From the NCBI GenBank assembly GCA_963708295.1, contig CAVPSJ010000008.1, forward strand, positions 32,001 to 96,000: 64,000 nt of DNA. Reading direction: 5' to 3'. This DNA is from an uncultured delta proteobacterium (GTDB taxonomy: Bacteria > Desulfobacterota > BSN033 > UBA1163). Below, piece by piece: positions 1-18,685 of the stretch (positions within the stretch are counted from its first letter, which is position 1; each line of letters starts with the position of its first letter). Below the pieces are notes generated by a model. That model was not told the origin of the DNA, ran no database searches, and saw only the letters and a program-made list of their open reading frames with translations. Made by a program: the position numbers and the translations under genes.

Positions 1-1
1 T

Positions 2-505: not shown

Positions 506-534
506 GGCGGAAGTGGAACCGGACGGGGAGCAAG

Positions 535-1031: not shown

Positions 1032-2672
1032 GTGTTTATGAAAAGGCTTTTAAAAGGAGCAGCGATTGTTTTGGGAATTCTGGTTATTCTGGTGATCGCA
1101 CTCAGTATTTTTGTCAAAAGTTATCTTTCCAGCGACCGGCTCAAGCCGATCATTCTTCCAAGAGCGGAAGCCATCACAGGGAGAAAGGTACAGTTAGACG
1201 AGATCAACGTTTCTCTTTTTTCGGGAATTGTGGCCAAAGGCCTGAGCGTGAAGGAAAGGGATGGTCAGAAAGACTTCCTGAAGATTGGAAAGTTTGTTCT
1301 CTCCTACCGACTTTTGCCCCTACTGCAAAAACAACTCGTCATCAGCAAGATCGAAATTGTTTCTCCTTCGGTTTCTATCAGGAAGGAAAAAGGAGGGAAG
1401 TATAGCTTCAGCGACATCATGGAAAGACCTTCCCAGGAGCCCAGGAAACCCTCCGCGCCCGAACAAAAGTCGCTTCCTGTCTCCGTGGTTGCCGACCGAT
1501 TGCAGATCCGAAACGCCAGTTTGGCTTTTGTCGATCAAGAAAAAGACTTACCTGATGTCTCCCTTGCTTTGGATGCCGAGTTCAAGGGAGGACTGGAAAA
1601 GGACGGCACCCCCCGTCTGGATTTTGGGCTCATCTCGCTCAAGGAGATGGGAGTTCAGCTGAAGGATCGGGAAATCAAGGTCTCGGGCAAGGTGGAGATG
1701 GATGCCAGGACGATCCGAGCCAATCTTCAAACCGTGATCGGGAAGGATAGTATTCACCTCTCGGCAACGGTCAAAGACTATCGTTCAGCGCCCGATGTGG
1801 TTGCCAATATCCAGGCCAAAACCCTCGACCTTCAGCAGCTGATGGGATTAAGCGGTGAGAAGAAAGCTCAGGAGCGGAGCCCTCAAAAGACGGAGAAGAA
1901 AGGGGAGCCCTCTCGGAGCGGGATGACGGAGAAGCTCAAGGCTTCGGGGCAGATCACGGTGGATAAGGCTACCTATCAGGATTACGTCATCAAAGACCTC
2001 CGCATCCCTTACCAGTATGCAAAGGGTATCCTGAAGATCGACCCTCTGCAACTGCAGTTTTCCGGAGAAGGGTCCTTCACGGCAGAGGGCTCTCTCAACG
2101 GAAAGCTCCAGTGCGAAGGGGAGGACGCGTCCACCATTCAAAAGACCTTAAAAGGGACGGCCGTTGCAAAGCTGGGCAAGGGGGCCATTAAACAATCTCA
2201 GATTTTCGATGCCATTGCGTTGGTCACGGGCATTTCCTTCTTGAAGAATCCTGGATTTGACCAGGGGTTATTCAATTTTGATGTGAAGGACCAAAGGGTA
2301 TTTCTTGATGGCTGGATCAATTCTAGTCTCTTTAAAATCAGTCCGAAGGGTGTGGTTGATTTCGCGAAGGGGCTCGACCTCCCGACAGAGCTTAAGCTTG
2401 CACCGAGCCTGACCGGGAACCTGAAAGGAAAGCTTGCCTCCATCAAATTTCTCGATGACGAGCAGGGGTGGAAAGTCATTCCCCTCAGGATCAAAGGCAC
2501 GACGGATCATCCCAGCATTACTCTTGATGAGGAGGGTTTAGAGAGGCAATTAGGCCGTGGTTTGACGAGAGAGCTCCAAAGGCGTTTTCTGGAACCAAAG
2601 TCTGAGAAGTCGGGGAAACCCTCCGAGAAGAAGAAGGGAAAGGATATTTTGAGAGACCTCTTCGGGGAATAA
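1032..2672 (+). CDS. AsmA family protein
   Basis: N-terminal TM anchor, AsmA-like N-terminus (ITGRKVQLDEINVSLF) and C-terminal IPLRIKGTTDHPSI motif. Confidence 0.8.
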   Translation: MFMKRLLKGAAIVLGILVILVIALSIFVKSYLSSDRLKPIILPRAEAITGRKVQLDEINVSLFSGIVAKGLSVKERDGQKDFLKIGKFVLSYRLLPLLQKQLVISKIEIVSPSVSIRKEKGGKYSFSDIMERPSQEPRKPSAPEQKSLPVSVVADRLQIRNASLAFVDQEKDLPDVSLALDAEFKGGLEKDGTPRLDFGLISLKEMGVQLKDREIKVSGKVEMDARTIRANLQTVIGKDSIHLSATVKDYRSAPDVVANIQAKTLDLQQLMGLSGEKKAQERSPQKTEKKGEPSRSGMTEKLKASGQITVDKATYQDYVIKDLRIPYQYAKGILKIDPLQLQFSGEGSFTAEGSLNGKLQCEGEDASTIQKTLKGTAVAKLGKGAIKQSQIFDAIALVTGISFLKNPGFDQGLFNFDVKDQRVFLDGWINSSLFKISPKGVVDFAKGLDLPTELKLAPSLTGNLKGKLASIKFLDDEQGWKVIPLRIKGTTDHPSITLDEEGLERQLGRGLTRELQRRFLEPKSEKSGKPSEKKKGKDILRDLFGE

Positions 2673-2865
2673 GGAATAGGAGGAGTTGGCTCTCTGGTTC
2701 GACCGACAGCGCCAAAATCCGAGTCGTGCGATCTGCAAGAGTCCCGGGCCGAAGGGGTCATTGAAATAGTGGCTAAAATAGTGGTTGATTTCTCGATTCA
2801 GCTCTGATAGGGCGCCAGTTACGAATCATAGTCCCAAAACGACTTCTGAAGATACGGAGAGCAAG

Positions 2866-4146
2866 ATGATTGTTTATAAAGTCTTCAGTAAAGATTATGA
2901 ACACGAAAAAGTGACGCTCCTGGGTATGATGGCGGAGAGAAGGGGAGATTTGAGGGGGAAAACCCGGTTGGAAGCCGGCCTGACGTGGGCCAGGTTAACA
3001 TTCGGCGATTCAGCAAAAGATAAGGGATCCATCTTCGTCGTGCCGAAAGAGTTGGAGGCAGGACATGCCACAAGAGTGCTCATGAAAAGGACGGTATTTT
3101 ATAAGGGTGATCTTCTGGACATGGTGGACCCCCTTGCTCCCAGCCGGAAGAGACGGGTTGAGACGAAGGATGCTGAGAAAGATAACGTCTTGTCGGGCGG
3201 GTTACTGGAGGTGATCGGAGAGACGACTTCTTATAGGGAGTTTTACGGTTTTTCTGAAAACCCTTTTGAAGTCGTACCGGATCCCCAATTTTTTTATTCT
3301 TCTCCGAGCCACCTGAGCGTATTGACTTCGGTGATTAACAGCATCGAAAGCGGAAAAAGGCTGATGTGCGTCACGGGAGAGGTGGGAACAGGCAAGACCA
3401 CCTTTATTCATTTCTTGCTTCATTGCCTCGAAGAGAAGGTGAAGACCGTCCTGATCGTTCATCCATCGATGACTTTTGAAGAGTTGGTGAGCAATATTCT
3501 TCTCGGCCTAGATCAGGGGGTTGTGGAAGAAACGAAGCAGGCACTCCTGAATCAACTGAATGCATATTTGACGGAGAAGATGGGTGAGGATAAAACCCTG
3601 GTTGTTGTCGTCGATGAAGCACAGAACCTGCCTCCGGAGATATTGGGAGAACTTGGAACGATTTTTGAGGTCCCTGGCTGGCTGGAGCGACTTCAGATGA
3701 TCTTTGTCGGTGCCCCTGAATTAGAGGATAAAATCAGCACGCCCCGTTTGCGGCAGTTCGGGCGAAAAACAGGAATCAGGTGCCAGATCAGCGCCTTGAC
3801 GGAGGATGAATCAAAGAAATATATTGACCATCGGCTCAAACTCGTCGGAAGCAGGGGCCAAGAAGTATTCACTCCGGAAGCTATCTCCGCGGTTGTTCGT
3901 TATGCGCGAGGATTTCCGCGCGTCATCAATATCATTTGTGATAACGCTTTTATGATTGGTTACGGCTTATCGAGAACAAAGGTCGATGTGGATATCATCC
4001 GTCAGGCTATAAAAGATAGGGAAGTTCCGACAGAAAAAAAACTCATTCCCACGAAAATGCTGTCGGCAGTAAAGCAAATTCGTTTGGCGGCACAGGTCCT
4101 ACATTTTTTCAGGCAAAAAATCCTCTCATCATTCCGCTGTATTTGA
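2866..4146 (+). CDS. ExeA/GspA-like AAA ATPase with an extra N-terminal ~60 aa domain
   Basis: YREFYGFSENPF, Walker A GEVGTGKT, Walker B VVVVDEAQ, GFPRVINIICDNA; ATG 2866 preceded by GGAG. Confidence 0.85.
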   Translation: MIVYKVFSKDYEHEKVTLLGMMAERRGDLRGKTRLEAGLTWARLTFGDSAKDKGSIFVVPKELEAGHATRVLMKRTVFYKGDLLDMVDPLAPSRKRRVETKDAEKDNVLSGGLLEVIGETTSYREFYGFSENPFEVVPDPQFFYSSPSHLSVLTSVINSIESGKRLMCVTGEVGTGKTTFIHFLLHCLEEKVKTVLIVHPSMTFEELVSNILLGLDQGVVEETKQALLNQLNAYLTEKMGEDKTLVVVVDEAQNLPPEILGELGTIFEVPGWLERLQMIFVGAPELEDKISTPRLRQFGRKTGIRCQISALTEDESKKYIDHRLKLVGSRGQEVFTPEAISAVVRYARGFPRVINIICDNAFMIGYGLSRTKVDVDIIRQAIKDREVPTEKKLIPTKMLSAVKQIRLAAQVLHFFRQKILSSFRCI

Positions 4147-4311
4147 CCCACCTGCTGGAATCATTCCAGGCTGCGATATCCCTCTCTTACACGGTCATTT
4201 TTCCGATTGTTTTCCTCGATCCTTCTCATCCTCTTGCATCCCTGAACAAGGTCACCCTAGGCCCGTAACTTCTTAAAATTAAAAGGCTAAAAAATTATTG
4301 AAAAATTATTG

Positions 4312-4340
4312 TTGACATCTCCTTATGAAGTTAGTATCAT
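4312..4340 (+). promoter_or_regulatory. Sigma70 promoter of the RHH gene
   Basis: TTGACA (4312-4317), 17-nt spacer, TATCAT (4335-4340); AT-rich upstream element. Confidence 0.75.
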
Positions 4341-4387
4341 GACTCATCATTATTCATCATTTTTAATCATTGAGATTCATTCATCAT
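4336..4387 (+). repeat. TCAT array with 10-bp period (putative operator)
   Basis: TCAT ends at 4340, 4350, 4360, 4370, 4380, followed by TCATCAT to 4387. Confidence 0.7.
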
Positions 4388-4394
4388 CGATCTT

Positions 4395-4595
4395 ATGGTT
4401 GACAAAAGAATAAGACAGCGAATCACGATAAGCCTTGACGAGGACGCATTGAAGAGTGTTTCATCCATTGCCTCTGAAAATGACGTCTCAATAGCCCGGA
4501 TCGTTCGATATGCAGTGGATAACTTTCTGAAAGAATGGAAAGAAGGCAGCCAAGTGCAACTTTTTCTCCCGTTGAGCAAAAAGAAGGGAGGTTAG
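4395..4595 (+). CDS. Ribbon-helix-helix (CopG-like) DNA-binding protein
   Basis: Beta strand RITISLD followed by helices and VSIARIVRYAVDNFL. Confidence 0.8.
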   Translation: MVDKRIRQRITISLDEDALKSVSSIASENDVSIARIVRYAVDNFLKEWKEGSQVQLFLPLSKKKGG

Positions 4596-4599
4596 AGGG

Positions 4600-4785
4600 G
4601 TGGGCAATCTTGCGGAAAAAACAGGGAAAAATCAAGCGACAGCGGAGATGAAAGAACAGAAAAGAGAGCTTTTCGAAAGCACGGAAGCGAGATTGAGAGA
4701 TCTGAAGCATCTTGAAATGGCCTATGAATGGCTGAGAAACAGACAGAAGCCGGTGCAATTGAAGCGTGCAATCGAAAACGTTTAA
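4600..4785 (+). CDS. Small hypothetical coiled-coil protein
   Basis: 61 aa ORF starting 4 nt after the RHH stop, purine-rich RBS, helical charged sequence. Confidence 0.5.
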   Translation: MGNLAEKTGKNQATAEMKEQKRELFESTEARLRDLKHLEMAYEWLRNRQKPVQLKRAIENV

Positions 4786-4956
4786 TGGAATGCCTTGCTT
4801 AGTTGTGTATGACACCAGAGGCATTCTCAACTCCGCGAAAACCTTTACGACGTGTTCTGGCCAGGGTAGTCGAGTCGGCTGAAATTGTAGGTAACCTTTA
4901 TCACTCAACGAACAGGACTCCGAAGAAAGTTACGGAATCGGGTGGAGTCTTCGAAC

Positions 4957-5139
4957 ATGACAGCGTATGAATTCTATTATCGGGATGAAAAAGGAAGAGA
5001 GCACTTTATTGGAATACTGCCGGAGAGAAGGAAAAGCCCAGAAAGAATAACGCGTGAATCTGTCTTGAATTGGGGATGGAAGGTGATAGGCGATACTCCC
5101 GATGTCGAGAATATCTATTTCGTCAAGGTGGACGTGTAG
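4957..5139 (+). CDS. Small hypothetical protein homologous to the N-terminal domain of the ExeA-like ATPase
   Basis: MTAYEFYYRDEKGREHFIGILPERRK...LNWG..IGD..IYFV; GGAG RBS. Confidence 0.7.
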   Translation: MTAYEFYYRDEKGREHFIGILPERRKSPERITRESVLNWGWKVIGDTPDVENIYFVKVDV

Positions 5140-5176
5140 ATTTTTTGATCCGTCGTTAACTCGTTCTTCCAATTCT

Positions 5177-5973
5177 CTACCCCTCTCCTTCCCTGATCCG
5201 ATCCGATCTCTCAACGAATTTCCGAATGGCTTTGAAATAATCCTTGAAGCCGACCAGCATGATGTCATTGTGGGTTGCGGACGGGATGACGAGAAGTTCT
5301 TTTTCTACGGCTCCTAAATGCCGATAGATCTCCCTGGCATTTTCAAGCGGGACGAGGCTATCCTGTTCACCATGAATGATCAGGGTGGGGATGAATATTT
5401 TCTTGATCCTCTCGAGACATTCCTGATCAAGCTTTTCCAGACCCATGACCTGTGCGGGGATTCCCAGGTGAACCATAATCCTCACGATACTGGGGAAGCC
5501 ACTTTCGATGATGAGTCCCTGAATCTCTTTTTGATAGTGATAGGCCAGTTCCAGGCCGGAAATGCTTCCCAGGGACCTCCCCATCACCCACAGGTCTTTA
5601 CGAAGATTTCTTCTGAGGAGCTCCCCTCTCACCTCTTTGAAGATGACATGGGCATCCTGAACGAGATCGGTGAGAGTAGGGGTTCCGCCACTGGCTCCAT
5701 AACCCCTGTAATCGGCCACGACCAGGTTTATTTTACTTTGATGATAAAAGGGAGAGATCTCGTCATAATCGCTCGCCACTTCACCATTTCCGTGGAAAAA
5801 AAGAACCCATGGCCATTCGTCCCGGCCCGTGTAGAAACGACATGAGATGGAAACGCCGTCAGCAACCCATACCGGAAGGTCAGAAGCATTTTCAGGGCAT
5901 GGCGCATGATCTTGACGGGGATAAAAAATAAATGTCGCAGAAAAGGCTGGTCGAGGGAAGAATAATCAATCAT
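5177..5973 (-). CDS. Alpha/beta hydrolase (frameshift near 5' end)
   Basis: LFFHGNGE, DYRGYG, GRSLG nucleophile, IHGEQD, ATHND; N-terminus MIDYSSLDQP is in another frame. Confidence 0.85.
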
Positions 5974-6123
5974 AATTCAAAGTTTAGCACTATTTGGCGG
6001 AGGAGGGAAGGGGTTCGTTCGACTTTCTTCGACCTTGACGATCCTCCCTTACATTATTAAATTAAAGGTTATAGGGCTTTTTATGGATTCGGCCCATCTT
6101 TGGATGATCGAGGGAGGTGCCCT

Positions 6124-6744
6124 GTGATACTGAAAATGTTGGTCGTTGGACCGATTCAGTCAAACTGCTACATCCTGGGTTGTGACCGGACGAGACAGGC
6201 AGCTGTCATCGATCCAGGGGGAGACGTGGACAAGATCTTGATGGCCTTGGCCAAAGACGATTTGCGCTGTGTCTACATCATCAACACCCACGGCCACTTT
6301 GACCATTCGGGTGAAAACAAGCGACTGAAGGAGGTGACCGGGGCTCAACTCATCCTCCACCGTGCCGACGTTCCTATGGTCGTGCATCAAGGGGCCAACG
6401 GGGGGATGTGGGGGATGAAGGTCGAAAATTCTCCTCCTCCTGACCGTTACGCGGAAGAGGGGCAATTGATTACCTTTGGCGACATCTCGTTGAAGGTTCT
6501 CCACACTCCCGGCCATTCCGGAGGAGGAATCTCACTGGTCACTGACAGGATGGCATTTGTGGGAGATACCCTTTTTGCCGGGTCCATCGGCCGGACCGAC
6601 TTTCCCGGAGGCGATCATGAGGCGCTTCTACGTAACGTGCGGGAGAAAATCTTTCCTCTGGGAGATGATGTCGTCATCTATCCGGGACATGGGCCGAAGA
6701 CAACGGTTGGGAGGGAAAGAAAAACGAACCCATTCTTTACGTGA
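6124..6744 (+). CDS. MBL-fold metallo-hydrolase (glyoxalase II-like)
   Basis: THGHFDH, HTPGHS, GDTLF, YPGHG motifs; GGAGGT RBS before GTG 6124. Confidence 0.9.
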   Translation: MILKMLVVGPIQSNCYILGCDRTRQAAVIDPGGDVDKILMALAKDDLRCVYIINTHGHFDHSGENKRLKEVTGAQLILHRADVPMVVHQGANGGMWGMKVENSPPPDRYAEEGQLITFGDISLKVLHTPGHSGGGISLVTDRMAFVGDTLFAGSIGRTDFPGGDHEALLRNVREKIFPLGDDVVIYPGHGPKTTVGRERKTNPFFT

Positions 6745-6803
6745 TATGCTTCAGATACCCATGCCATGAAAAAGAGGGTGTGCCTCCCCTTTCCAAATAA
6801 GAT

Positions 6804-7139
6804 TGAGTGGTGATTCGCCTCTGAATGGCTTCCCGCAATGATGTACTCCGCCGCAGATCCGCCTCGGTTTTCAAGAAAACATTCCTGGTTTCCCTTAAGG
6901 GAAAGGGCAGAACCTTCTTTTAAGTGCCCTGAGTAAAAGCCTGTCACCTCTAGGTCTCCTTTGATCGCCAGAACAATCTCCCCATGTTACGGACCGGGTT
7001 TCACTGATCTCGCCTTTTCTCTTGGCTTCAAGACACCATAGATCATATAGCAGGCATGGCTGCCAGTCTCTTGGAAGCCGAGCGAAAATTCTCTTCTTTT
7101 CGAATGGGTCGCGCCGTTTTTGACTTCGTATATTTTCAT
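6804..7139 (-). pseudogene. Small cupin-like hypothetical gene with in-frame TAA
   Basis: MKIYEVKN...GSHACYMIYGVLKP...KPGP*HGEIVLAIKGDLEVTG...YIIAGSHSEANHH; AAGGAG RBS; both halves are in the same frame across TAA 6987-6989. Confidence 0.55.
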
Positions 7140-7433
7140 CCTTTGCGACTCCTTTCGAGGATAGTGAGAATCGGCTCTCCAAATCTGAAGCCCATTTTTT
7201 ATCAGGGCCACCTTGATATTATAATCGATATTATAATCCCTTTCGTCATTTGGCCTTCCTCTTAAGAGGAAGGCAATAAAGAGAGAACAGGATTTGCAAA
7301 TCGGAGGAGAATGTCCCATTTTATGTATTAAAATAGAGAGTGGCCGTTTGAAGAATGAGAGAGTGAAGAGCATGTGAAGTCTGAACAGTGGATATGGCAC
7401 ACGTAAACGAATGAGCGGGAAAGGAGAGGGGCG

Positions 7434-8015
7434 ATGGAACAAAAAACACCTACACGCCAGGAGGCCTTGGCACTTCTGCATCAGTACACTGCGAACGAGA
7501 GCTTGCGCAAGCATGCCTATGCCGTGGAAGGGGTGATGCGCCACCTTGCCAGGAGGCGGGGCGAGGATGAGGAGAAATGGGGGATCGTCGGTCTTATCCA
7601 TGACCTCGATTATGAAAAGTTTCCCGATCAACACTGCTCCAAGACAGGCGAAATCCTGCGAGAGCATGGGTGGCCGGAGGAATATATTCGAGGCGCTGTC
7701 TCTCATGGATGGGGGAGATGTTTCGACGTCATGCCACAGACCGACCTCGAAAAAGCTCTGTACGCGATTGATGAACTGACCGGGCTCGTTGTCACCACTG
7801 CCCTGATTCGCCCCTCAAAAAGTGTCCTGGATGTTCAGGTGAAATCGGTGAAGAATAAATGGAAGGACAAGAGGTTTGCGGCGGGAGTGGATCGGTCGGT
7901 GATCGAAAAAGGGGCGGAGATGTTGGGAGTGGGATTGGATGAGTTGATTGAGGATACGATCAAGGGGATGCAGGAGGTTGCCGAGGCCATCGGACTCAAG
8001 GGCAATCCAGGGTGA
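7434..8015 (+). CDS. HDIG/HD-domain hydrolase
   Basis: LRKHAYAVEGVM, GLIHDLDYE, SHGW, DELTGL. Confidence 0.85.
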   Translation: MEQKTPTRQEALALLHQYTANESLRKHAYAVEGVMRHLARRRGEDEEKWGIVGLIHDLDYEKFPDQHCSKTGEILREHGWPEEYIRGAVSHGWGRCFDVMPQTDLEKALYAIDELTGLVVTTALIRPSKSVLDVQVKSVKNKWKDKRFAAGVDRSVIEKGAEMLGVGLDELIEDTIKGMQEVAEAIGLKGNPG

Positions 8016-8358
8016 ATCTTTCCCTGTGTGCCACAGATCCCCCTCACCCCAGTGGGGCTGTGTAGCCATCGCGACCTCGACGGAAGAGACAATCGGGTTC
8101 CAAAGTGTTAAGATACATTCTTTTAGGAATGGCTGGTCGGTGCTTGCGGAAAATGGAGTTATCCAATGACATGGAATGTCTGAATCTCGAATGTTAAAGG
8201 TTGCCGCTCTGAGACTTTGGGAAGCGTCTCGTATTCCTTTGGCAGGCCGCCCAATATCCCCGACCGTCTCTTCCGGCTTGTTGGGAGGCGGTTTTTATTA
8301 TTGTGACACAATCTCGGTGGAGAGAGGGGTAGGGTGAGGAGCGCAAAAGCCTGCGATT

Positions 8359-9513
8359 TCACCTGCAATCATCATTTCCATGGCTTTGTCGAATCGGACG
8401 ATCATCTCTTTTCTCCATTCTTCGTCGATGGAAACAGCTTCGGGAAGCCACCTGTTCACAATAACCGCAACGGTCGCAATCCGTGTGAAGGCAATCTGTT
8501 TTCTTGAAATGGTCGAGAAACCCGTTGAATTTTGAGTTGTCGATGTAGACCTTTCCGGGAAAAGGCTCCTTGAGGACTTCCATCGCTTCTCCCATCATCT
8601 CGGGCTCGATGAGGTCGGTTCGTTGAAGGACCTCCAGATTGGGTGATAGGAAGGCTCCTTGCTGGGGGAGCGACAGGAGTTCCACCAGGTTTCCTTTATA
8701 GCTTTTTCGCTCATAGGCATTGACAATCTGAACCAAGCTTTCTGTTCCTCTGAACCTCTCGATGAGCTTCAAACAGTCTATTCCTAAGGCCTCGTAATCG
8801 GACACATCCTCAGGCCGTATCCAGCGGGACTTGATCAATTCGGCGGGCCGAAACAGCTTCAGACGCTGGCAGGCGAGCTTACAATAGTCCGGTGCGAAAC
8901 CCCCGCATGGATGACCCTCCTGGGAGCCATGAGAGACCATGTTCCGGTGGTGGAGGTCGAGAGGACATTGAAAGAGGCAGCAGTGATTGGCGATCAGTTC
9001 AAGCTCGCAATCGACGGCCTCCCGGATGGAGCGCAGGGTCCGAAAATCACGGCCGATGGATTCAGGAAGGATGATCTTATCCGCCCCCAGATCTTCCCAG
9101 TAATGTGCCAGATGAACGTTCTGGACACGGGCAAAAGAGGAGACGCAGACCCTGAGGTTCGGAAATTCCCTCTTCACCATCTGAAGAAGGAAGGGAAGGG
9201 TGAGGGTCACCATGCCGGCCCCGGTCGAAGAGATCCACTCTAAATGCTCCCTGATCTTCTTATATCCTTTTTTGGTGAACTCCAGGTTGTCAAGACAGGT
9301 CGAGTTGATGAGGTAGTTGAAATCGAGACCTCTCTTTCGAGCCTCGGCGATAAAGGAGGCCACTTCTTTCTTTCCCACTTTGGGAATGAAGAGGGCCATC
9401 CTTCCTCCTCCCAGGGGGTCGTTCCACATCTGTCCGTAGAGGCTTCGAACGGAGGTTCCTTCGAGCCTCTCCAGTAAACCGAAATCCCAATTGGTGGCTA
9501 TGGAATAATGCAT
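8359..9513 (-). CDS. Peptidase U32 family Fe-S protein (frameshift near C-terminus; true frame may run to ~8194)
   Basis: FNYLINSTC, LELIANHCCLFQCP, YCKLAC, WIRPEDV, LKLIER, C-terminal CLHTDCDRCGYC. Confidence 0.8.
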   Translation of the reverse strand: MHYSIATNWDFGLLERLEGTSVRSLYGQMWNDPLGGGRMALFIPKVGKKEVASFIAEARKRGLDFNYLINSTCLDNLEFTKKGYKKIREHLEWISSTGAGMVTLTLPFLLQMVKREFPNLRVCVSSFARVQNVHLAHYWEDLGADKIILPESIGRDFRTLRSIREAVDCELELIANHCCLFQCPLDLHHRNMVSHGSQEGHPCGGFAPDYCKLACQRLKLFRPAELIKSRWIRPEDVSDYEALGIDCLKLIERFRGTESLVQIVNAYERKSYKGNLVELLSLPQQGAFLSPNLEVLQRTDLIEPEMMGEAMEVLKEPFPGKVYIDNSKFNGFLDHFKKTDCLHTDCDRCGYCEQVASRSCFHRRRMEKRDDRPIRQSHGNDDCR

Positions 9514-9637
9514 CGCTGACTCTCCTTTTGAGCCTAGAGTAAACGTGCCTTCGTTGATACCAAGTGTGAAACTCCAATCACCAGATCTCTAGTTCCAAAC
9601 AATATCAAGTGACGAAGTTAATACAAACGCATTAAGT

Positions 9638-9700
9638 GAGATGCTGAAACGAGTTCATGACAAGAAAAAGTATGTCATTCCGAACTTGTTTCGGAATCTC
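9638..9700. repeat. REP-like inverted palindrome pair
   Basis: GAGATGCTGAAACGAGTTCATGACA and TGTCATTCCGAACTTGTTTCGGAATCTC are inverted copies, each self-complementary. Confidence 0.6.
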
Positions 9701-9786
9701 GAATTTAAGCATGACGGTGAATTAGCCGGGTTTGCCTTGAAATCATCCAAACGTATTGGGTTCTTAGAATTCTTATCATCGCTTGG

Positions 9787-11273
9787 TTACGGGTGTTTGG
9801 GGCTGGGTGCTTTATCACTCATCCCTTCTATCCCATCTTTCTTCTCCACATCGCACCAGCGAAGCAGAGAGGACAGAGGGGAAATTCCGTCATGATGCCA
9901 CATCATGGAGGGGACGGGCATCTTTCCAGGAGAAGTGATTCGAGCTAACCCCAGCTCCCCCAATCTTCCGATAAAGTCCCTTTCACGCTCATCCCCAATG
10001 GCCACGGCTGCATTCTGCAAGTAAGGAGCGATCGACTTCAGGGAAGGCAGTATCTGGAAAATATCTTCCACCCCATAGATCCGGATGAAACGATTCAAAG
10101 GGGAGGGAGAGAACGTTCCCGGATCCTTTTCATAAACGATTGTCCAATCCGTTCCGTGAGGCGAGGCTAACAGAAGAACCTCCTCGTTATTTAACTCCCT
10201 GAACTCATACTTGGTCTCTAAGCTGATGGATGGCTGAAGCCTCCCCGGGAGAAATCTTTCCCGCGGGGCATCTTTAGATTCAAACCTTCCATGGCTTCCG
10301 CCAGGGTCCGGCAAAATTCCTGTGGAGAGACCTCCCCCCCTGCTTCCAGCATAATAGATATGGGGAGCGAGGCATGCCTGCTGGTCGAACATCGAGCAAT
10401 CGTATGCAACAGAGGCTGCCAGTTCCTCTAATCCATGGCGACTCAATCTCTTCCGGCCGATGATTCCAAATCCCAGCTTATGACCGTGAAGAAGAGCCCT
10501 TCACCTGCCTCGGGGGATCTTCTTCCTGAGGGATTCACAGGCCTCGACCCCGCCAAACATGATGACGGCATCGGCTTGATGAAAGGCTGCCTCTTCAATC
10601 TCTTCTTCTCCCCCTCGCCAGTAAAGGACGGCCATGGATTTCAGCCATCTCCGGATCGATCTCTTCGATCGTCTTGAGATAGAGCGGAGCAAAGGTCGGT
10701 TCTCCTGCGGCCACTTTTCCCAGACAGGCGGCCTTCAGAAGGAGAGCCCTCATGAAGAGGAGATGGGGCAGGGCAGGAATATTTTCGGAGAAAATGGAGA
10801 GGATGAGCTTCGGGCCAAAGGCCCGGCTGTAACCCTGCCAGCTCCGGGGAGTATTGAAAATCGTCGAGAAAGAGAGGATTCTTGATCTCGGAGCAGAGGG
10901 CGCGCCAGATATCTTCCCGCAGGGAACTCTCCATCTCCACATCGATACTGGCCTCCACCACCTCACGAGAGAAATGGGTGATCGCAGGAATGGTCTTGAG
11001 CGCGAGTTTCCGAAGAGGATAATCTCTTTCAAGCCATCTCCGGGATGCCTGATCAAGGACATCGATGATTTTCCCGATAGGAAGGCCGGCAAGGTATGTC
11101 TCTCTGCTCTTCTTCAGGTGATCGGCCAAGGTCTCCACGAAAGATCTGCTGATCTGAGGGATTTTGAGATGAATCGTAATGTCTCCATCCTGATAAGCCT
11201 CGGTTCTGAAGGCCTTCACCTGACCTCTAAAATCCGGAGGAAGGTAGTATGCATCCACTTCGATGATTTCCAT
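9787..11273 (-). CDS. LuxC-like acyl-CoA/acyl-protein reductase (multiple frameshifts)
   Basis: IFSENIP, ADAVIMFGG, FDQQACLAPH with catalytic Cys, WHHDGISPLSSLLRW; reconstructed from ORFs 10641-11360, 10595-11092, 10501-10692, 9787-10446. Confidence 0.8.
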
Positions 11274-11356
11274 CAACACTCCTTTTGATATATTCGAGGG
11301 TGGAGAGTAGAGGTGAAAAGGAGTTAAGACCCCATTCACCATTCCACGTTCTACGT

Positions 11357-12480
11357 TCAAGTCCTTATCTGGGTCATCTCATCGATCGTCAAAGAACAGC
11401 CTCTCGCGTCTCCGTCTCTGGTTCTGCCGTCAATCTCAAATCCTTCTGGAGTGATTCTTCCCAGGTCATCGGACTGAATGGCCAGAAGATGCCCCCGGTT
11501 CGCCAGGTCAAAGTGTCGGAGCAAACCCGTCTGACCCGGGGGAAGCGGCTCCAGGGTATCCGGGTCCACCACCAGGGTTCTTGTCCACGGAGGATTGATC
11601 TTGGCCCTCGGGAGATTTGTTCCCCTTGAGGGCGTTCCTCAGAGTATTGTCATAAAATTGAGAGCTGATCTCGGTCATTCCAAGAAGATTGACACAATAG
11701 TCCTTTGCGACTCCAAGGAAATCCTCACAATCGCTGACAAATTCTTCCCGTTTCACTTCCCTGCTTTTTCCTTTAAATCCTCCGGCATCGAGTGTTCTCG
11801 AACCCGGAGGGAGTTTGAAGCGTAACCCTTTCTCACGACAGTAATCGAAGAAATTGACAAAGCCGAAAGAGCCGCCGCAGATCGTTATGGGAATACCCTC
11901 TGCTTCAGAACGGCGTAACTCATCGACAAGCACTCTGGATATCGAAGCCTTCCTTGCCGATGAGAAAGCGGCTTTGGGATGATCCAAAGTATTCCTATCA
12001 ATCGATTCATCCCATAGGCCATGACCATCGTGGGAGACGATCTCCGGAGAGGGGGCGATGATCAGGAGGGTTGTCTTGATCTTGTCCGGGAAGAGGAAGG
12101 AAGAGGCCGCTTCATAAATGGTGGCATCCATGAGCCTGAGGCCTCCTTCGTCGTAATGGACCTTTCCCCTTTCCTCCGGTCTCGTCGTCCCGCTTGTCAT
12201 AAAGGTCCGTACCGTGCTGGAGGGAAACATGGCGAGTTCCATCACTTTGAAGGCATCCGTGGGCAGGGCGGGAATCTGATCCCAGGAAGAGATCTTCTCC
12301 GGGGTTACTCCGCGCTTTTCACAGTAGCGCCTGTAAATCGGAATATATTTGACCTGGAGTTCAAAGATCCGAAGGGCAAGGCGATTGAACTCTTCTGAGT
12401 CCTGATGATCCGTCCCCCTGTCGGATATAGGACAGGATCTTTTCGTCGAGATCCAATATCTCTTTGGGTAACTCCATCAT
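11357..12480 (-). CDS. LuxE-like acyl-protein synthetase (frameshifted)
   Basis: FMTSGTT loop, DAGGFKG, GMTEISSQFYD, HFDLAN, IQSDDLG, C-terminal RGCSL acylation Cys. Confidence 0.85.
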
Positions 12481-12514
12481 TCCCTCTCTCCATAAGCAAA
12501 ATGATCGCTCGTAA

Positions 12515-13770
12515 TTAATCGAAACAGAAACTTCCAATACAAGACGGGACACCACTTAACATCCCATCGATATGGAAGGTGATCATCTTCTTCTCGACTA
12601 AGTGGATGAGCACCCTTTTCAAATCTTCCAACGGGAGTTTTTTCTTCTCAGCGATCTCCTGAATGGACAGATTCCCATGAAGCTTTTCTGCCAACCCTGA
12701 CCGGCCTTTCCCCAAGGCAGCTTTCATCTCTTTGTCAGAGACCAAGGACTTCGGAAGAAGCCTTTCATCGAGGGGAGGGAGTTCTTGAAAGTGAGATGGA
12801 ATGAGAAAATCGGTCGGCCGATAGGCGAAGAGGGACGGGAGGAATTCCAAACTTCTTCTGGTAGACATAGCGATAAGCGCTCAACCCTCCTGCTATTCCC
12901 TGGGCCACGGCCCGGGAGAAGGAGTTGTAGCCTCCGGAGGTCACATCTCCGACAGCGAATACCCCAGGAATGGAAGTCTGCATATCCTGATCCACTTTGA
13001 TGAAAGGAGAATTGAAATCCTCAGCCCCTATCTCAAATCGCCAGGCGGGCGAGAGTTCATAGGAGTTGAAATCAAGGAGGACCTTCGGACAATGGATCTT
13101 ACGAGAGCCTTTGGATGTTCGGAGGGTCAGTCCCTGGAGTCTGCCATCCCCCCAGTATCTTTCCACCCAGCCTCGAAGGATGTCCTCCGTATCCTCTCCT
13201 TCTCCCTCCATGATGAATAAGAGAGGAGATTTACCTGCGTTTAGATCTCTGATCAAGGGAATCAGGTTTTGCAACTTCTCGCTTCCCACAATGACCAGCC
13301 TTGGTTCCCATCTTCTGCTGAGAAGTTTTTTGAGGTGAGAGATGATAAATTCATATCCCATACTGGTCACTTCAAGGCCCCGTCCCAGGTAGTCCCTCTC
13401 ATTGACCAGAACCTTGATCCCGGTGGCAATGATCACGGCTAATGAACGGAAGACTTTTCCGTCAGAAGTGAAGACCTCTTTGATTTCGCCTTGGAGGTTG
13501 ATCCGGTTGACTCTTCCCTGATGGACTTGTATCTGCAAACTCTCCATATCCCTCAGGAGGCGCCTGGACAATCTCCTTCCCCTGGATCTTCCATGAAGGT
13601 CCTGTGAAGATACATCCCCGCCAGCCTGCTAAACCTCCGAGAAAGGAGTTCTCAATCAGCAGGGTGCTGCAAGGGATGGCCTTGTATCTCTTGACCCATC
13701 GGGCCCGGATGGCCGCGTTGAGCCCGGCCGGCCCTCCTCCCACCACAATCACGTCCCAGTCATATCCCAT
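12515..13770 (-). CDS. FAD-dependent oxidoreductase, TrxB-like fold without CxxC (frameshifted)
   Basis: DVIVVGGGPAG, VIIATG, TSIPGVFAVGDV; extra C-terminal domain. Confidence 0.75.
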
Positions 13771-14288
13771 CCTTCTCTCCCTTCCGTTCCTTCTGAAGAT
13801 AGGGAATCAGTCCCCCCGCCTCCAAGATCTTTTTGATATGGGGGTCCATGGGGGAAAATGGGAAACGTCTGGCATTGGGGAGGTCAATGATTCCCTCGGT
13901 GGTGAGGATATCGATCAATTCTCCGTCTTTGACCCGATTCTGAATTTCTCTGCATTCAAAAGTCGGGACGCCGAGATTGGTTAAGCTCCTGAAGAAGATT
14001 CTGGCAAAGGATGCTGCGACGACTGGCCTTCACGCCGAAATTGCGAAGACCTCTTACCGAAGTCTCCCGGCTGGAGCCGCAGCCGAAATTTCTTCCTGCC
14101 ACGATGACAAGTTTCTCATGGGAGGATTCCGTTTCAAAATTCGCGCCCAGCCTCCCCATCCCTTCAATCAACCCCTCCTTCACTCTCTTCTCATCCAGGC
14201 TGAAGAAGAAAGAAGGGTGGAGGACATCGGTATTGACATGATCCCCTAATTTCCAGACCCGTCCGGAAATCTTTTCGGGAAGTGTCAC
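13760..14288 (-). CDS. LeuD/HacB-like isomerase small subunit (frameshifted)
   Basis: GRVWKLGDHVNTD, AGRNFGCGSSRE, ASFARIFFRS, ILEAGGLIPYL. Confidence 0.85.
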
Positions 14289-15541
14289 ACATCACCTCTC
14301 TTGGGTCGATGATCCTTCCTGCCAGGGCAGAAGCAGCGGCTGTCAGGGAGAGGCAAGGTAGATGTCTGGAAGAGGGATCTCCCATCCTCCCCTGGAAGTT
14401 TCTGTTGGAAGTGCTCAGACACCTCTCTCCCTGCTCCGAGAATTCCTTTATCGATGCCCCCGCAGAGACCACAGCTCGGATTCAGAATCACCCCGCCGGC
14501 CTCCACGATGGTCTGAAGATATCCCCTTTCGATCGCCTCCCGGTAGATCTTCTGGGAAGCCGGCGAGATGAGAAGTCTCATCCCCGAAGCGATCTTCTTC
14601 TTCCGGAGGATACGGGCCGTCATTTCAAGGTCCCTGAGCCTTCCGCCTGTGCAGGAACCGATGAAGACTTGCTGGATGCTCTTCCCCTTTGATCTCATCC
14701 AACATCTACGACCCGGGCAGGGCTGTGAGGGAGGGCGACTTTAGGATGAAGCGAGGAAAGGTCTACCTCCATCCTGTTACGGTACAGGGGATTCTCATCA
14801 AAACACTCTCCCCAGTCGTCTGCACTGGCCGTCCCTTTCCTCCAAATAATTCCGGGTCACTTGATCGGGGATGAAGAGCCCGTTTTTTGCTCCTCCTTCC
14901 ACCACCATGTTGCAGACGGCAAACCGGTCGTCCATCGGAGAGGGCTCCGTCATCGTCATAAAACTCGAGGGCCTGATAGAGAAACCCTCCTTCTCCGAAT
15001 CTTCCCAGGAGGTCGAGGATAATGTCCTTCCCCATGAGGTAAGGGGGGAGTTTTCCCTTGAGGTCGATTCGGACTGGCTGACGGGAGGCTTGAGCCATGT
15101 CTTTCCTGTCATCAAGGTATAAAGAATATCGGTTGAACCCATTCCCGTTGCTAAACATCCCAGAGCTCCGGCGGTGGTCGTGTGGGAGTCGGCGCCGAGG
15201 ACTAACATGCCGGGCCTCAGCCAGGGCCCTTCGATCAGGAGCTGGTGGCAGATTCCTTGATAGATGGACTGGTGAGGTAATGCCTCGGCCTTGGCAAAGG
15301 AGATGACCGCTTTTGCGATATTGGCCCGTTCAATCGTGGAGGGAGGGGCAAAATGATCGACCGTGACGAAAACCCTCTCCTTGTTCCAGATCCGACCTCC
15401 CAAATCTTTTAGCTCTGAAAGGAGAAGAGCAAAGGTCGGGTCAGGCAAGAGGACAAAGTCGACATCGACGGCATAGTATTCGCCCTCTCTTCTTCCGTCC
15501 GAATGTTTCTGGATGATTTTATCCGTATATCCTTCAAACAT
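14285..15541 (-). CDS. LeuC/HacA-like [4Fe-4S] isomerase large subunit (frameshifted)
   Basis: VDHFAP, GICHQ, GADSHTTTAGALG, FIGSCTGGR, NPSCGLCGG, STSNRNFQGRMG. Confidence 0.88.
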
Positions 15542-16736
15542 CCTTTTTCAGAACCCCTTTTGCGATATCCCAGAAAGCCTCCAACGGGAAATTGAGAGAG
15601 CCTTCGTAATAGGATTCCATCTCTTTTGCCATCCGATGGATCTCCGCCTTACCCTTTGCCATCTTTCTCTCCTTTACCTTTTGAAGGATCTCCTTCAGCT
15701 CTTCCTCGTTTGCTTCATATCCTCTTTGTCCGAGGAGATGCATGATGGTCTGGGTGCCTGTATGCTTTCCCAGGACGAAAGAGGATTCTCTTCCCACTTC
15801 TTTCGAATCGATGATTTTGTAAGTCTGGCTGTTTTTGAGAATGCCATCCACATGGATCCCCGATTCGTGGCGAAAGGCATTGAGCCCGATGATCGGGGCA
15901 TGAGGAGGGATGAAGATCCCTGAACACTGCTCCACGAGCCGGGAAAGGCTGTAGAGCCCCTGCAGATCGATTCCGTGTTCGCCGGTGGAAGATCTTCTCC
16001 AAAGCCAAGACCACCTCGTGAAGGGGAGGATTCCCTGCCCGCTCGCCGATTCCGTTGACCGTGACCGAGGGATAATTCACTCCGGCTTCTATGGCAGCCA
16101 GGGTGTTGGCTGTGGCCAGGCCGAGGTCATTGTGACAATGGACGCCCAATCTCCATCTCCTGTGGAATTCGGTCTCTCACTTTCTTGACCAGGTCCTTCA
16201 TCCTGAAGGGTTCCATCACGCCCACCGTGTCGCAGATAAAGGCCCGTCGGGCTCCCCGGTGGAAGGCGTAGAGAAAGGATCTCACAGAGAAAAGGAATTT
16301 CGGCCCGCGCCGCGTCCTCTGCCGCCAGGTTGATCAAAAATCCCTTTTGATCGGCATACCGGATCACATCCCCCATCAGTCGCTTCACACCCTCTTCATC
16401 CAATCCCAGCTTTGAGCGCACATGGAGGGGGCTTACCGGACAGATGATAAACACCTCTTTCACGTCACATTCAGACGCCTGGTCCACCTCATCCCTTTTG
16501 AGCCGGATGGACACTCCGATGGACGCCTTGAGCCCCTGGTGGGCAATGGCAGAGATGGCCTCCCTCTCCTCCGAAGATATGGATGGCATTCCCACGTCGA
16601 GAATGGGCACACCGATTCGGTCCAAAGCTCAGAGCAATCTCGAGTTTTCTCCTCCTTGGTGAAGATAGACTCCGGGAGACTGCTCGCCCTCTCTCAGGGT
16701 TCCATCCACAAAATTAATTTTATCTGACGGTTCCAT
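15534..16736 (-). CDS. DRE-TIM acyl-CoA:2-oxoacid synthase (homocitrate/isopropylmalate synthase-like; frameshifted)
   Basis: [44 protein letters not shown]; no LeuA regulatory domain. Confidence 0.88.
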
Positions 16737-16836
16737 AAAAAGGTTTCAGCCCATTCCCCATTTGAGTGACATCGCACCCCGTAAGTATAAGAAAAACCGC
16801 GTTGGAAAGGTTTGGAAGCATGCCCAACTGTCTACT

Positions 16837-18398
16837 TCAATGGCTACCCCTCGAACGCCAGCTCATATAACGACAGAAGAGCCTGCCCCAAAAGGGATCG
16901 CTGGCTTTCCCGGATTAGGATGGAAGGAACAGAAATCCCGACACTTGGCCTCTCGTAAGACCTTCTCAAAATCTTGTGGGTTCAGTTCCTTTCCATTTCC
17001 CATATAGTCAGGGATAGCAGTAGCCCAATCCTCCACCTTCAGGAGAACTTTTTTGATAAAAGTCAGCAAAGGTCTGCTTCGTCGAAACAATTCCGAACTC
17101 CTCCGGATGGAGGTGCCAGGGAGAGGCAGGCTCCAGGGATATCGGAGCAGACCAGATTCTCCCTATATTTTTGAATCTTCTCTTGATTTCTCTTTTCAAG
17201 GCAGAGGTCTTGGATAAATCAGAATATCTTTCCCCTGGGATTCCCATAGCGAAGAAGATATCGGTCCTGATCCCAAACTTTTCTGCTGCGGAGATGGCCT
17301 CCATCAGTTCCTCGTTGGAGTAAGTGAAGGTCTTGTTACGATGCCTCACCCTTTCATCTCCGGACTCAGGAGAGAGGGCGATCATCGAGCCGTCAAGAAT
17401 GAATGTATTTGCCAATTCCCGGAGGAAGCGCTCTGAAGGGAGAGAGAAGGATTCAAAGTAAACTCTTGTGCGAAGCTTCTTTTTTCTCAACAGGGGGAAT
17501 AAATCTAGATAATATTTTTCTCCTTCTTTCCCCGGATCAAAGGCGATGTTGAACATCTCGTAGCCTAATTCGAGCGCTTCGGCCATCGTGTCGGCGACGG
17601 CTTCGGGTGAGCGGAAAACCACCCCCTTTCTCCCGTTGACTCTTTGCTGGGCCTCCGCACCCCCTCCGCACCAGGTGCAGTTTCCAAAACACCCTCTGCC
17701 GATATTGAGAGGAAAGAGAGGAGGGCCAAGATGAAAGTGTCGTCTGTTCTCCTCTTTGGAAAGTCCTTTGGCCCAGACAAAAGGCATTCCGATATAGCGA
17801 ATATAAGTCTCCTTACCCTCAAGCAAAGAGAGATTGATATACGAGGATCGGTCCAAATCCGCTTCAGAAGCCACATAGGAGAGAGGATTTTCTTTGATCT
17901 CCCCATCTTTTCTCCAGGTGAGGTTGGGGATGTTTTCCCAACCCCTTCCTTCTTTCACAGCATTCATCAACGCGATGAGCGGGATTTCAGCGTCGCCACG
18001 GATGATCGCGTCCAACTGAGGAAAAGAGCTCAGAATCTCTCTGTGAAAAAGACTGGCAGTGTACCCACCCGACAAGATGGTGATATCCGGTCTCTTCTCT
18101 TTTATCTCCTTGGCGATCCTCATCACGTCATACGACTGCGGGTGAAAGTGGAGCGGGATGGCCACCACCTTGATCTCCTTATCCTTCAAATAGGCGAGGG
18201 GCGAGGAGATCCTCTTTTCGATCCACTCCAGACCCAGGTGCAGGATTTTGGTCTTGATATCCTTTTTGTGTGGCAAGGTCAGCAAGGGAGAGGGTCCCCA
18301 TCGGAAGGAGATTGACGGTCATATACTCGCCGAAGGGACGGTAGAAATTGTGAGAATTTGGGCACATGAATGAAAAGGAGATCAAGCGATTCGGTCAT
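16837..18398 (-). CDS. Cobalamin-dependent radical SAM enzyme (frameshifted at both ends)
   Basis: N-terminal B12-binding-type domain (LPMGTLSLAD, LSGGYTAS, IRGDAE), GRGCFGNCTWCG CxxxCxxC, SPESGD, GIPGE. Confidence 0.88.
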
Positions 18399-18685
18399 GT
18401 ATCTTAAGTTGTTTTGCTTTTTTAATGGCGTTATTGATTGGAGGATTTTTAAAAGTTGATAAATTATAACCTATCTTTCTTTCTTAAACTACACTCCCTC
18501 TGTCATTTCGGTAATGAGTGGCTATAGTTCCGTTGGACAGACCCGCCGGAGCGCAGTCCTGAAAATCGAATATGCGGTTCGTGATCGAATACAATGTTCC
18601 CCTTAAAGAGGAGGTTCCTTACGGGGGACCGGCTTGCCATGCCAAATTCCCAATGATTGCACTAAAGGCGAAGGAGGTAAAGACC

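Follow-up and report, generated by a model that had tools for sequence, protein, structure and literature searches.

We describe an eight-gene operon in the genome of an uncultured delta proteobacterium of the Desulfobacterota (assembly GCA_963708295.1, 4.95 Mb in 20 contigs). The sequence studied is a 64-kb stretch, C8:32001-96000, here called the window, and the eight consecutive genes lie within 8359-18398 of it, all on the minus strand. We read them as a dedicated accessory biosynthetic operon, most probably functional, which would be the Desulfobacterota version of a widespread five-gene core for homologation and carboxylate reduction; our rough probability for this reading is 0.6. It draws on direct observations of five kinds: which families the genes belong to, how far they are conserved, which of them occur together, the catalytic cysteines and the pocket signature of the synthase. 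By analogy, the operon would work like a fusion of Hph- or Leu-type homologation, a LuxEC-type carboxylate reductase and UbiUV-type anaerobic tailoring.

Families were called by Pfam on the window's own open reading frame (ORF) pieces and rechecked with Pfam and NCBIfam on the intact orthologues of a related locus, L001. Pfam confirms all eight families that an earlier note, made from the letters alone, had named in this co-oriented set. From the upstream end the genes are as follows.

16840..18398, minus strand: B12-binding radical SAM gene, ATG at 18398, about 520 amino acids (aa) in relatives; Pfam B12-binding and Radical_SAM on piece 17008-18318
15534..16730, minus strand: short-form 2-oxoacid:acetyl-CoA synthase (DRE-TIM, LeuA/NifV/HphA family) without the LeuA regulatory domain; Pfam HMGL-like and HCS_D2 on three frame pieces (15534-16628)
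14285..15541, minus strand: LeuC-like aconitase-family large subunit, overlapping the synthase stop by 8 nucleotides (nt); Pfam Aconitase (14285-15547)
13760..14288, minus strand: LeuD-like small subunit with a distinctive substrate loop; Pfam Aconitase_C (13956-14291)
12515..13770, minus strand: thioredoxin-reductase-fold flavoprotein; Pfam Pyr_redox_2 (12765-13806)
11357..12480, minus strand: LuxE-like acyl-protein synthetase (adenylating); Pfam LuxE (11357-12476)
9787..11273, minus strand: LuxC-like acyl thioester reductase; Pfam LuxC on three pieces (9787-11378)
8359..9513, minus strand: U32-family Fe-S protein (U32A), the sole gene intact in the window; Pfam Peptidase_U32, 48.8 bits (cut-off 22.4)

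The three overlapping start/stop pairs that the earlier note had pointed out lie where it placed them, at 15534/15541, 14285/14288 (4 nt) and 13760/13770 (11 nt). A tblastn match of the L001 radical SAM protein spans 18477-16846 of the window.

The operon is conserved as a unit. When one genome per species was searched with the U32 protein, 17 loci were obtained, named as Syntrophaceae, Syntrophorhabdus and other Thermodesulfobacteriota metagenome-assembled genomes (MAGs). All eight genes occur in the same order in 12 of the 17, and in each of the nine such loci with ORFs listed (9/9) all eight frames are intact; L001, L003 and L008 are examples of intact clusters. Three of the 17 loci end at contig ends and hold cluster genes only, in the same order. 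L014 continues a contig-cut cluster, L029, of the same MAG, and L015 has a radical SAM paralogue adjoining U32 and no other cluster genes. Searching again with nine aligned LuxC proteins brought 77 loci from many phyla, and 79 unique loci were left after both searches were merged and duplicate contigs removed. The five-gene core (synthase, LeuC, LeuD, LuxE and LuxC) occurs together in 54 of these 79, which by their record names span Thermodesulfobacteriota, Acidobacteriota, Gemmatimonadota, Myxococcota, cyanobacteria and others; it is also found in actinomycetes and in endofungal Mycoavidus. Co-conservation of the gene set, on which the earlier note had made its proposal depend, is thus seen both among close relatives and across phyla. 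The genes that accompany the core fall into these combinations.

Core with B12 radical SAM and flavoprotein: 36 loci
Core with radical SAM, flavoprotein and U32: 14 of those 36 loci, all of Desulfobacterota type
Core with flavoprotein only: 8 loci, four of them on contigs ending at the synthase
Core with an SBP_bac_8-like protein without signal peptide, and neither radical SAM nor flavoprotein: 10 loci

The flavoprotein is present in 36/36 radical SAM loci, and no locus (0) has the radical SAM gene without it. The SBP-like gene never stands alongside radical SAM or flavoprotein. Since the flanking genes of type I clusters, those with the radical SAM gene, vary by locus, the unit ends at the radical SAM gene on one side and at LuxC or U32 on the other. 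Used as a marker, the flavoprotein turned up in 14 of the 401 genomes sampled from the phylum (11 of 339 when only high-quality ones are counted). The family gave 4 positives among 11 other genomes and the genus 0 in the one genome sampled, so that the cluster is an accessory unit with a patchy distribution.

The synthase (417 aa) has the features of a DRE-TIM synthase, its L001 orthologue matching PF00682 with 241 bits and PF22617 with 77.5 bits. The same orthologue scores 385-387 bits against NifV and LeuA subfamily models, under all equivalog cut-offs (TIGR02660: 385 vs 463). The best solved relatives are plant methylthioalkylmalate synthase, homocitrate synthase (6KTQ, the second-best match in the Protein Data Bank, PDB) and LeuA. 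According to Table 1 of PMC12961565, five pocket positions separate HphA, homo-HphA, homocitrate synthase (HCS) and isopropylmalate synthase (IPMS). We mapped these positions by conserved anchors, with the genome's housekeeping LeuA as positive control.

IPMS (PMC12961565): L/E/S/N/E
HCS (PMC12961565): H/R/T/S/H, residues holding the distal carboxylate
HphA (PMC12961565): A/D/A/M/S
homo-HphA (PMC12961565): A/N/A/F/S
Housekeeping LeuA of this genome (522 aa): L/E/S/N/E
Operon synthase, window and L001: S/N/A/F/S
31 cluster synthases: S or T; mostly N or H; V or A; hydrophobic or aromatic; T, S or A

Against these published residue lists the operon synthase matches homo-HphA at four of the five positions, HphA at 2/5, HCS at 0/5 and IPMS at 0. 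Two assignments were rejected. As an isopropylmalate synthase the enzyme lacks both the IPMS pocket and the C-terminal regulatory domain, and its LeuA equivalog scores lie below the cut-offs; as a homocitrate synthase (NifV/LysS/AksA) it has none of the pocket residues and stays below the cut-off of TIGR02660.

The two isomerase subunits have the features of a LeuC/LeuD-type enzyme. The LeuC-like L001 orthologue passes PRK00402 (457 bits, cut-off 385) and TIGR02086 (438, cut-off 410) and carries 'GSCTGG' and 'SCGLCGG', and the LeuD-like orthologue passes TIGR02087 (116 bits, cut-off 109). A substrate loop of the form 'DVLHP[S/P]xFFS' is found in 19 cluster LeuD sequences across phyla. It differs from the loop of the genome's housekeeping LeuD, 'DAIIPARYLNQT', which includes 'IPARYL'. 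Together, the synthase pocket and the LeuD loop suggest that the substrate is a bulky hydrophobic, possibly aryl, 2-oxoacid.

The earlier note would have given up its proposal had these been the only leucine or lysine enzymes of the genome. A separate leuA-leuC-leuD set lies at C17:109511-113170, and outside the operon the genome also encodes another LeuCD pair, four LeuB-family proteins and three additional synthase paralogues; the housekeeping LeuA carries the IPMS pocket, which the operon synthase lacks. These findings bear on an assignment to primary metabolism, that is, a second leucine route, a lysine route (through alpha-aminoadipate, with LuxE and LuxC for aminoadipate reductase) or a Re-citrate route. 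Such a role would agree with the near-equal scores of the synthase to NifV/homocitrate and isopropylmalate synthase models and with the rank of 6KTQ, and fungi reduce aminoadipate as an adenylated carboxylate (PMC12041015), the same kind of step as that predicted for LuxE and LuxC. It is nevertheless highly improbable, as the HCS and IPMS residues are missing from a pocket whose IPMS form is present in the genome's own LeuA, the operon LeuD loop has no 'IPARYL', the flavoprotein marker occurs in so few genomes of the phylum, and type I clusters are without aminotransferase or dehydrogenase.

LuxE and LuxC both have the features of their families and align full-length with the Photobacterium complex 7XC6. 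In LuxE (PF04443, 81 bits), the 'RGCSL' motif near the C-terminus places its Cys on that of 'KGCSL' in chain E, and 'FDQQAC' of LuxC aligns with 'YDQQAC' of chain A (PF05893, 272 bits for intact L001). The active-site Cys of LuxC (C301) is invariant in nine orthologues. A review describes these two cysteines as the acyl-group carriers of LuxE and LuxC, which natively are fatty-acid reductases (PMC12041015). Because both are conserved, a predicted ATP-dependent reduction of a carboxylate to an aldehyde via two acyl-cysteine intermediates is well supported. The luminescence equivalog models are far from being reached (LuxE NF052244, 58 vs 550 bits; LuxC, 95 vs 750 bits), and a LuxE score of this size indicates that it is not the luminescence enzyme itself. 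The luminous bacteria have the same adjacency, in the order LuxE then LuxC, with both cysteines kept, whereas their LuxD transferase and luciferase are missing from the operon, and the operon's substrate is probably not a plain fatty acid.

The same activation chemistry could in principle serve a catabolic module, in which an imported aromatic or dicarboxylic acid is activated and reduced while the synthase and isomerase run in the cleavage direction. LuxE-type ligases activate free acids, and loci of the first search are named as Syntrophaceae and Syntrophorhabdus, which are degraders of aromatic and fatty acids. We regard a catabolic role as quite improbable. Type I clusters are without transporter, CoA-transferase or ring-reduction genes, the ATP-costly reduction of an acid to an aldehyde is unusual in catabolism, and the same core is found in cyanobacteria, actinomycetes and endofungal Mycoavidus. 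A tblastn search with LuxC also returned plasmid LuxE-LuxC pairs from Azospirillum and Pantoea; these stand among SDR and ABC-transporter genes with no synthase or LeuCD, and were set aside as unrelated contexts. A protein atlas searched with LuxC and the flavoprotein returned generically named clusters only.

The radical SAM protein has the features of a B12 radical SAM enzyme, with PF02310 and PF04055 and a CX3CX2C motif (C253, C257, C260) that is invariant in 15 sequences. Three further invariant cysteines, C502, C506 and C525, lie towards the C-terminus. Its model has a pLDDT of 90.3, and the nearest solved folds are TsrM, MgmA, OxsB, CysS, AprD4 and TokK, mostly B12-dependent methylases (TM 0.55-0.64 for TsrM, MgmA, CysS and TokK); phmmer against PDB sequences found no relative. 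The best NCBIfam model is TIGR04190 (220 bits, cut-off 500), and there are weak matches to hopanoid and ladderane-type lipid radical SAM models. With the cobalamin radical SAM methylases (TsrM, MgmA, CysS, TokK) and TIGR04190 the protein shares the B12-binding domain, the CX3CX2C core and its nearest folds; it differs by its score below the TIGR04190 cut-off and its extra C-terminal cysteines, and the non-methylases OxsB and AprD4 are also fold neighbours. From the model, the enzyme is most likely a C-methylase.

The flavoprotein has a thioredoxin reductase (TrxR) fold with no CxxC, no second dinucleotide motif (GxGxxA) and a helical C-terminal extension of about 100 aa. Its best PDB sequence match is 3F8D, and an alignment of 16 sequences holds zero invariant Cys. 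The nearest folds to its model (pLDDT 89.4) are TrxR, ferredoxin-dependent TrxR and TrxR-type ferredoxin-NADP reductase. Assignment as a thioredoxin reductase was rejected, for the redox CxxC and the NADPH-binding GxGxxA are both missing and the fold alone is in common. Because it accompanies the radical SAM gene at every one of the 36 loci, we propose that the flavoprotein is the reducing partner that feeds electrons to the radical SAM enzyme. Alternatively, it may oxidise the isomerase product in LeuB's place.

Further B12 radical SAM genes are present in this genome. One, within C18:35744-38529 (L019 6744-9529), adjoins the gene for U32B, a paralogue of U32A described below. At C4:175069-178385 (L018 8069-11385), a radical SAM protein 44% identical to the operon's adjoins a gene for a CrtI-like flavin amine-oxidoreductase, and the other strand of L019 carries a B12 radical SAM fragment and a second CrtI-like gene. 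Radical SAM, U32 and CrtI-like genes keep recurring as neighbours.

In U32A, eleven cysteines are invariant in 12 orthologues, and the motif reads C169-x9-C179-x3-C183-x31-C215, with a C-terminal C-x4-C-x2-C-x2-C in addition. A second type, U32B, is 38% identical to U32A and has nine of the eleven Cys positions in common with it. The only NCBIfam match of the U32 protein is TrhP, at 20 bits. As described in PMC6747719, the ligands of Escherichia coli UbiU are C169, C176, C193 and C232, the usual family motif is CX6CX15CX3/4C with a 4Fe-4S cluster, and the U32 family is divided into twelve described groups. UbiU C169 and C193 align with U32A C179 and C215, while UbiU C176 and C232 do not fall on Cys (18% identity). 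The U32B gene stands between LuxC and U32A in L013 and L033-L036, five loci in all; its place in this genome is C18:37368-38525, beside another B12 radical SAM gene. A complex model of U32A with U32B scored 0.89 and the best control 0.00, on a scale whose mark is reached by 58/80 solved complexes and 2/110 mismatched pairs. The runs had at least 79% of contacts in common, the partner pLDDT was at least 84, and the modelled interface includes Cys73/Cys74 and Cys-rich segments. This prediction supports pairing of U32A with U32B in a heterodimer like UbiU-UbiV; homodimers are possible too.

The likeness to UbiU-UbiV, RlhA and TrhP consists of the U32 domain, conserved cysteines, two UbiU ligand positions, adjacent paralogues in five loci and the predicted pairing. 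The differences from UbiU-UbiV are that the spacing of the operon U32 is not UbiU's CX6CX16CX38C, that there is an extra C-terminal Cys motif, that identity to both UbiU and UbiV is 18%, and that no UbiT-like or ubiquinone genes lie near the operon. According to PMC10990095 and PMC11574389, characterised U32 oxidases take their oxygen from prephenate and act only on RNA bases and on precursors of ubiquinone; prephenate-dependent hydroxylation of an sp2 carbon is the reaction that defines them. The earlier note had proposed an O2-independent route. We narrow that part: loci with the core include some whose record names belong to mostly aerobic groups (Blastocatellia, Gemmatimonadota, Myxococcota, cyanobacteria), and it is only with U32 that the cluster looks specifically O2-independent.

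Seven of the eight genes in the window are broken over two or three frames, U32 being a single open frame. We aligned the DNA of the region with three relatives, L001-L003, which are 89-91% identical. Private to the window within 8441-18399 are 31 one-base insertions and two two-base insertions (15078, 10507), and the private one-base deletions number only three (16909, 14345, 14288). The inserted bases are varied and mostly outside homopolymers; insertions in the poorly aligned 16633-16664 and 12516-12559 are less certain. Those in the radical SAM gene lie at about 18351, 18256 and 17016. Contigs of four wetland/soil metagenome runs, which represent related populations, omit one letter at no fewer than 11 of the same places. 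The 8.4-kb flank at 1-8400 has 0 private one-base insertions and two one-base deletions. When the private columns are dropped, no in-frame stop is left in seven genes and two are left in the synthase, and dN/dS against L001 is 0.09-0.18 per gene, compared with 0.09-0.22 among the intact relatives themselves.

Other parts of the assembly show similar damage. An unlinked DedA gene (C4:36500-37136; L098 about 10500-11140) differs from seven relatives by a single private one-base insertion, at L098 10684, and the CrtI-like gene on C4 (L018 9873-11385) is broken into two overlapping frames, so frameshift-type errors occur outside the operon too. Close synteny was also sought around this second frameshifted patch on C4, where only short matches were found and DedA alone was comparable. 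Long-ORF coverage in the operon's 10-kb windows is 0.40-0.49 (genome median 0.66, 5th percentile 0.34), figures that do not set the operon patch apart as unique in the genome.

The insertions could be real mutations, around 30 in number, and the operon a dead remnant of a pathway lost here and active in relatives. Several points speak for a remnant: seven of eight genes are frameshifted, the insertions are concentrated in the operon with none in the flank, the only genome sampled from the same genus has no such cluster, which is an accessory one, and this copy has three additional intergenic insertions of its own. We nevertheless judge decay to be unlikely. The underlying dN/dS is as between intact relatives, no stop has been gained in seven of the eight genes, and DedA and the CrtI-like gene on C4 are affected although they lie elsewhere. 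The changes are nearly all one-base insertions, with no larger deletions, whereas natural gene decay is biased towards deletions. Because dN/dS is like that of intact relatives and the same kind of insertion is found elsewhere in the assembly, we take the insertions for artefacts of sequencing or assembly that affect this long-contig assembly in patches, and the operon is most probably functional in this organism.

For a functional operon we propose the following route; what we infer in it are the class of substrate, the sequence of the reactions, what the flavoprotein does and what is finally made. With a bulky hydrophobic 2-oxoacid, possibly an aryl one, as the partner of acetyl-CoA, the HphA-like synthase would form a 2-substituted malate. 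The LeuC/LeuD-like isomerase would then shift the hydroxyl, and a LeuB-family dehydrogenase encoded elsewhere may finish the chain extension. LuxE would adenylate a carboxylate and hold the acyl group on its C-terminal Cys, from which LuxC would take it onto its own Cys and reduce it to an aldehyde. The B12 radical SAM enzyme, most likely acting as a C-methylase, would modify the product with electrons probably supplied by the flavoprotein, and U32A, probably paired with U32B on the model of UbiU-UbiV, would hydroxylate it without O2. A substituted malate, reduction of a carboxylate and methylation or hydroxylation were already the outline given in the earlier note; the present results support that outline, and none of the three outcomes that the note had named as refuting it was seen, with step order and product still conjectural.

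The first two steps have known counterparts. The Hph homophenylalanine/homotyrosine pathway of cyanobacteria (HphA, HphCD, HphB), compared here through the published pocket residues, has the same short LeuA-family synthase followed by LeuC/LeuD-like subunits; its HphB/LeuB-type dehydrogenase is missing from the operon, and the operon's radical SAM, flavoprotein, LuxE, LuxC and U32 genes are without an Hph counterpart. LeuABCD, HCS/homoaconitase and AksADEF (coenzyme B) use the same enzyme families for these steps, and the operon LeuC and LeuD pass broad archaeal-type models. Unlike the leucine and lysine routes, the operon has pocket and loop signatures that are not of IPMS or HCS type and a patchy, accessory distribution.

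Several observations weigh against the reading of a functional pathway with this substrate. Among the sequencing runs listed, none was of RNA, the best DNA run shared 0.17 of sampled words and the contigs compared come from related populations, which makes the case for artefactual insertions an indirect one. The pocket comparison uses five positions from an HphA mutagenesis paper; at position 1 two pairwise alignments disagree by one residue, and among the 31 cluster synthases positions 2 and 4 are variable. No LeuB-type gene was present in any cluster examined, so that chain extension may stop at the substituted malate. The U32A motif is unlike the usual CX6CX15CX3/4C, with only 2/4 UbiU ligand positions on Cys, and the U32A-U32B score may reflect a general dimerising tendency of the family in paralogues that are 38% identical. 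Genes for aromatic tailoring are each seen in only 3-4 loci, and every one of those loci belongs to the other cluster type, described below.

The remaining points of this kind favour the main rival, a lipid-modifying pathway. In such a pathway LuxE and LuxC would make a fatty aldehyde, in line with their native activity as fatty-acid reductases (PMC12041015), the radical SAM and U32 enzymes would modify an alkyl or isoprenoid chain, and the synthase and isomerase would supply a branched primer or head group. A gene for a DedA (VTT-domain) membrane protein follows U32A in four unique loci, the radical SAM and U32A pair of L015 has further B12 radical SAM genes and a FabD-like acyltransferase beside it, L037 has a GDSL lipase beside its LuxE-LuxC-B12 set, and CrtI-like flavin oxidoreductases adjoin both radical SAM paralogues of the genome. 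The weak matches to hopanoid and ladderane-type models point the same way. However, neighbours of this type are few and lie outside the conserved core, and core clusters are without acyl carrier protein, ketosynthase or glycerol-lipid gene. The LuxE and LuxC equivalog scores are low, as given above, and a lipid role leaves the conserved trio of synthase and LeuCD, with its HphA-like pocket, unexplained. We consider a lipid pathway rather unlikely, though it deserves more weight than the other alternatives, and keep to homologation of a bulky hydrophobic 2-oxoacid.

The cluster version without radical SAM and flavoprotein bears on the nature of that substrate. Its ten loci include a class I/II aminotransferase in four and a PF00891 O-methyltransferase in three, together with FAD_binding_3 or tryptophan-halogenase-like flavoenzymes, and one cyanobacterial locus of this SBP type has a Glu/Leu/Phe/Val dehydrogenase and a DAHP synthase. 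The pair of FAD monooxygenase and O-methyltransferase, set against U32 and radical SAM, recalls by analogy UbiH/F/I against UbiU/V, and would fit an aromatic substrate, though the numbers are small. A more specific form of our reading is therefore offered tentatively: the core may homologate an aromatic 2-oxoacid and reduce it to an aryl-alkyl aldehyde, from which a small molecule with a redox or signalling function would be made, and anaerobic Desulfobacterota would complete the pathway without O2 by means of a B12 radical SAM methylase with its own flavoprotein reductase and a UbiU/UbiV-like U32 heterodimer. If this is true, the operon would encode the first prephenate-type hydroxylase of the U32 family to serve small-molecule biosynthesis beyond ubiquinone and RNA, and an anaerobic counterpart of the FAD monooxygenase and O-methyltransferase tailoring of the other version.

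All the enzyme families are known, and their combination has no described product. The earlier note had known of no pathway with this gene set, and none was found in the full-text literature, the scope of this search, with MIBiG and MetaCyc beyond it; the matches were papers on bioluminescence, biofuel, leucine, glucosinolate, HphA and UbiUV. Solving the pathway would extend the chemistry of 2-oxoacid elongation by a new branch and would give LuxE/LuxC-type reductases a role outside bioluminescence. U32 Fe-S oxidases would gain a third kind of substrate beside the two, ubiquinone and RNA, that are listed in a review (PMC11574389). The strict co-occurrence of radical SAM enzyme and disulfide-less flavoprotein suggests a dedicated reducing partner, which would be useful for reconstituting these difficult enzymes.

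Variants of the cluster were also seen. L054 and L086, contigs from Thermodesulfobacteriota-type MAGs, lack U32 and carry a pair of B12 radical SAM genes, one of about 460 aa and the other of 537 aa, in the order rSAM-synthase-LeuC-LeuD-rSAM-flavoprotein-LuxE-LuxC (rSAM, radical SAM). A gene fusing an adenylate/guanylate cyclase domain to an RDD membrane domain stands between LuxE and LuxC in L072, L075, L076, L078 and L080. The SBP_bac_8-like cytoplasmic protein is encoded in L041-L043, L045, L046, L057, L064, L067, L069, L073 and L079; its gene directly follows LeuD in L064 and L073, and elsewhere adjoins LuxC or lies a few kb off. The best PDB matches of this protein are weak ones to Thermus Fe3+-binding proteins (35 bits). 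In L035, an ISL3-family transposase gene (4433-5692) lies upstream of a flavoprotein-LuxE-LuxC-U32B-U32A block, and the radical SAM, synthase and LeuCD genes are not there. We rejected L035 as a variant pathway and read it as a rearrangement, the transposase lying at the missing upstream half. Another B12 radical SAM gene is found downstream in L035, at 14540-15874.

Scans of the window for promoters and terminators did no better than shuffled sequence (11 vs 7.5 +/- 2.4 and 18 vs 14.4 +/- 5.0, respectively). No tRNA gene or Rfam family reached threshold across the 64 kb, and hence no cobalamin or SAM riboswitch was found upstream of the operon.

Three stretches distinguish this copy of the operon from its relatives.

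9514..9840: insertion, about 300 bp long, that separates LuxC from U32; not in relatives (L001), with a short repeat as its core
12475..12573: stretch at the flavoprotein/LuxE junction; relatives have about 9-20 other letters, L001 is gapped, and contigs of the four runs skip 86-97 bases
16724..16846: stretch at the radical SAM/synthase junction, not in relatives; 13- and 44-base insertions relative to L001-L003, and contigs skip 121-122 bases

At the first of these, one metagenome contig joins 9520 directly to 9820. Word depth over 9500-9796 in environmental contigs is 60-1223, against about 10-50 in most operon bins. The repeat core (about 9619-9745) has four partial copies with 82-92% identity, on contigs C4, C15, C12 and C20, and the 9514-9840 insertion looks like a small mobile repeat.

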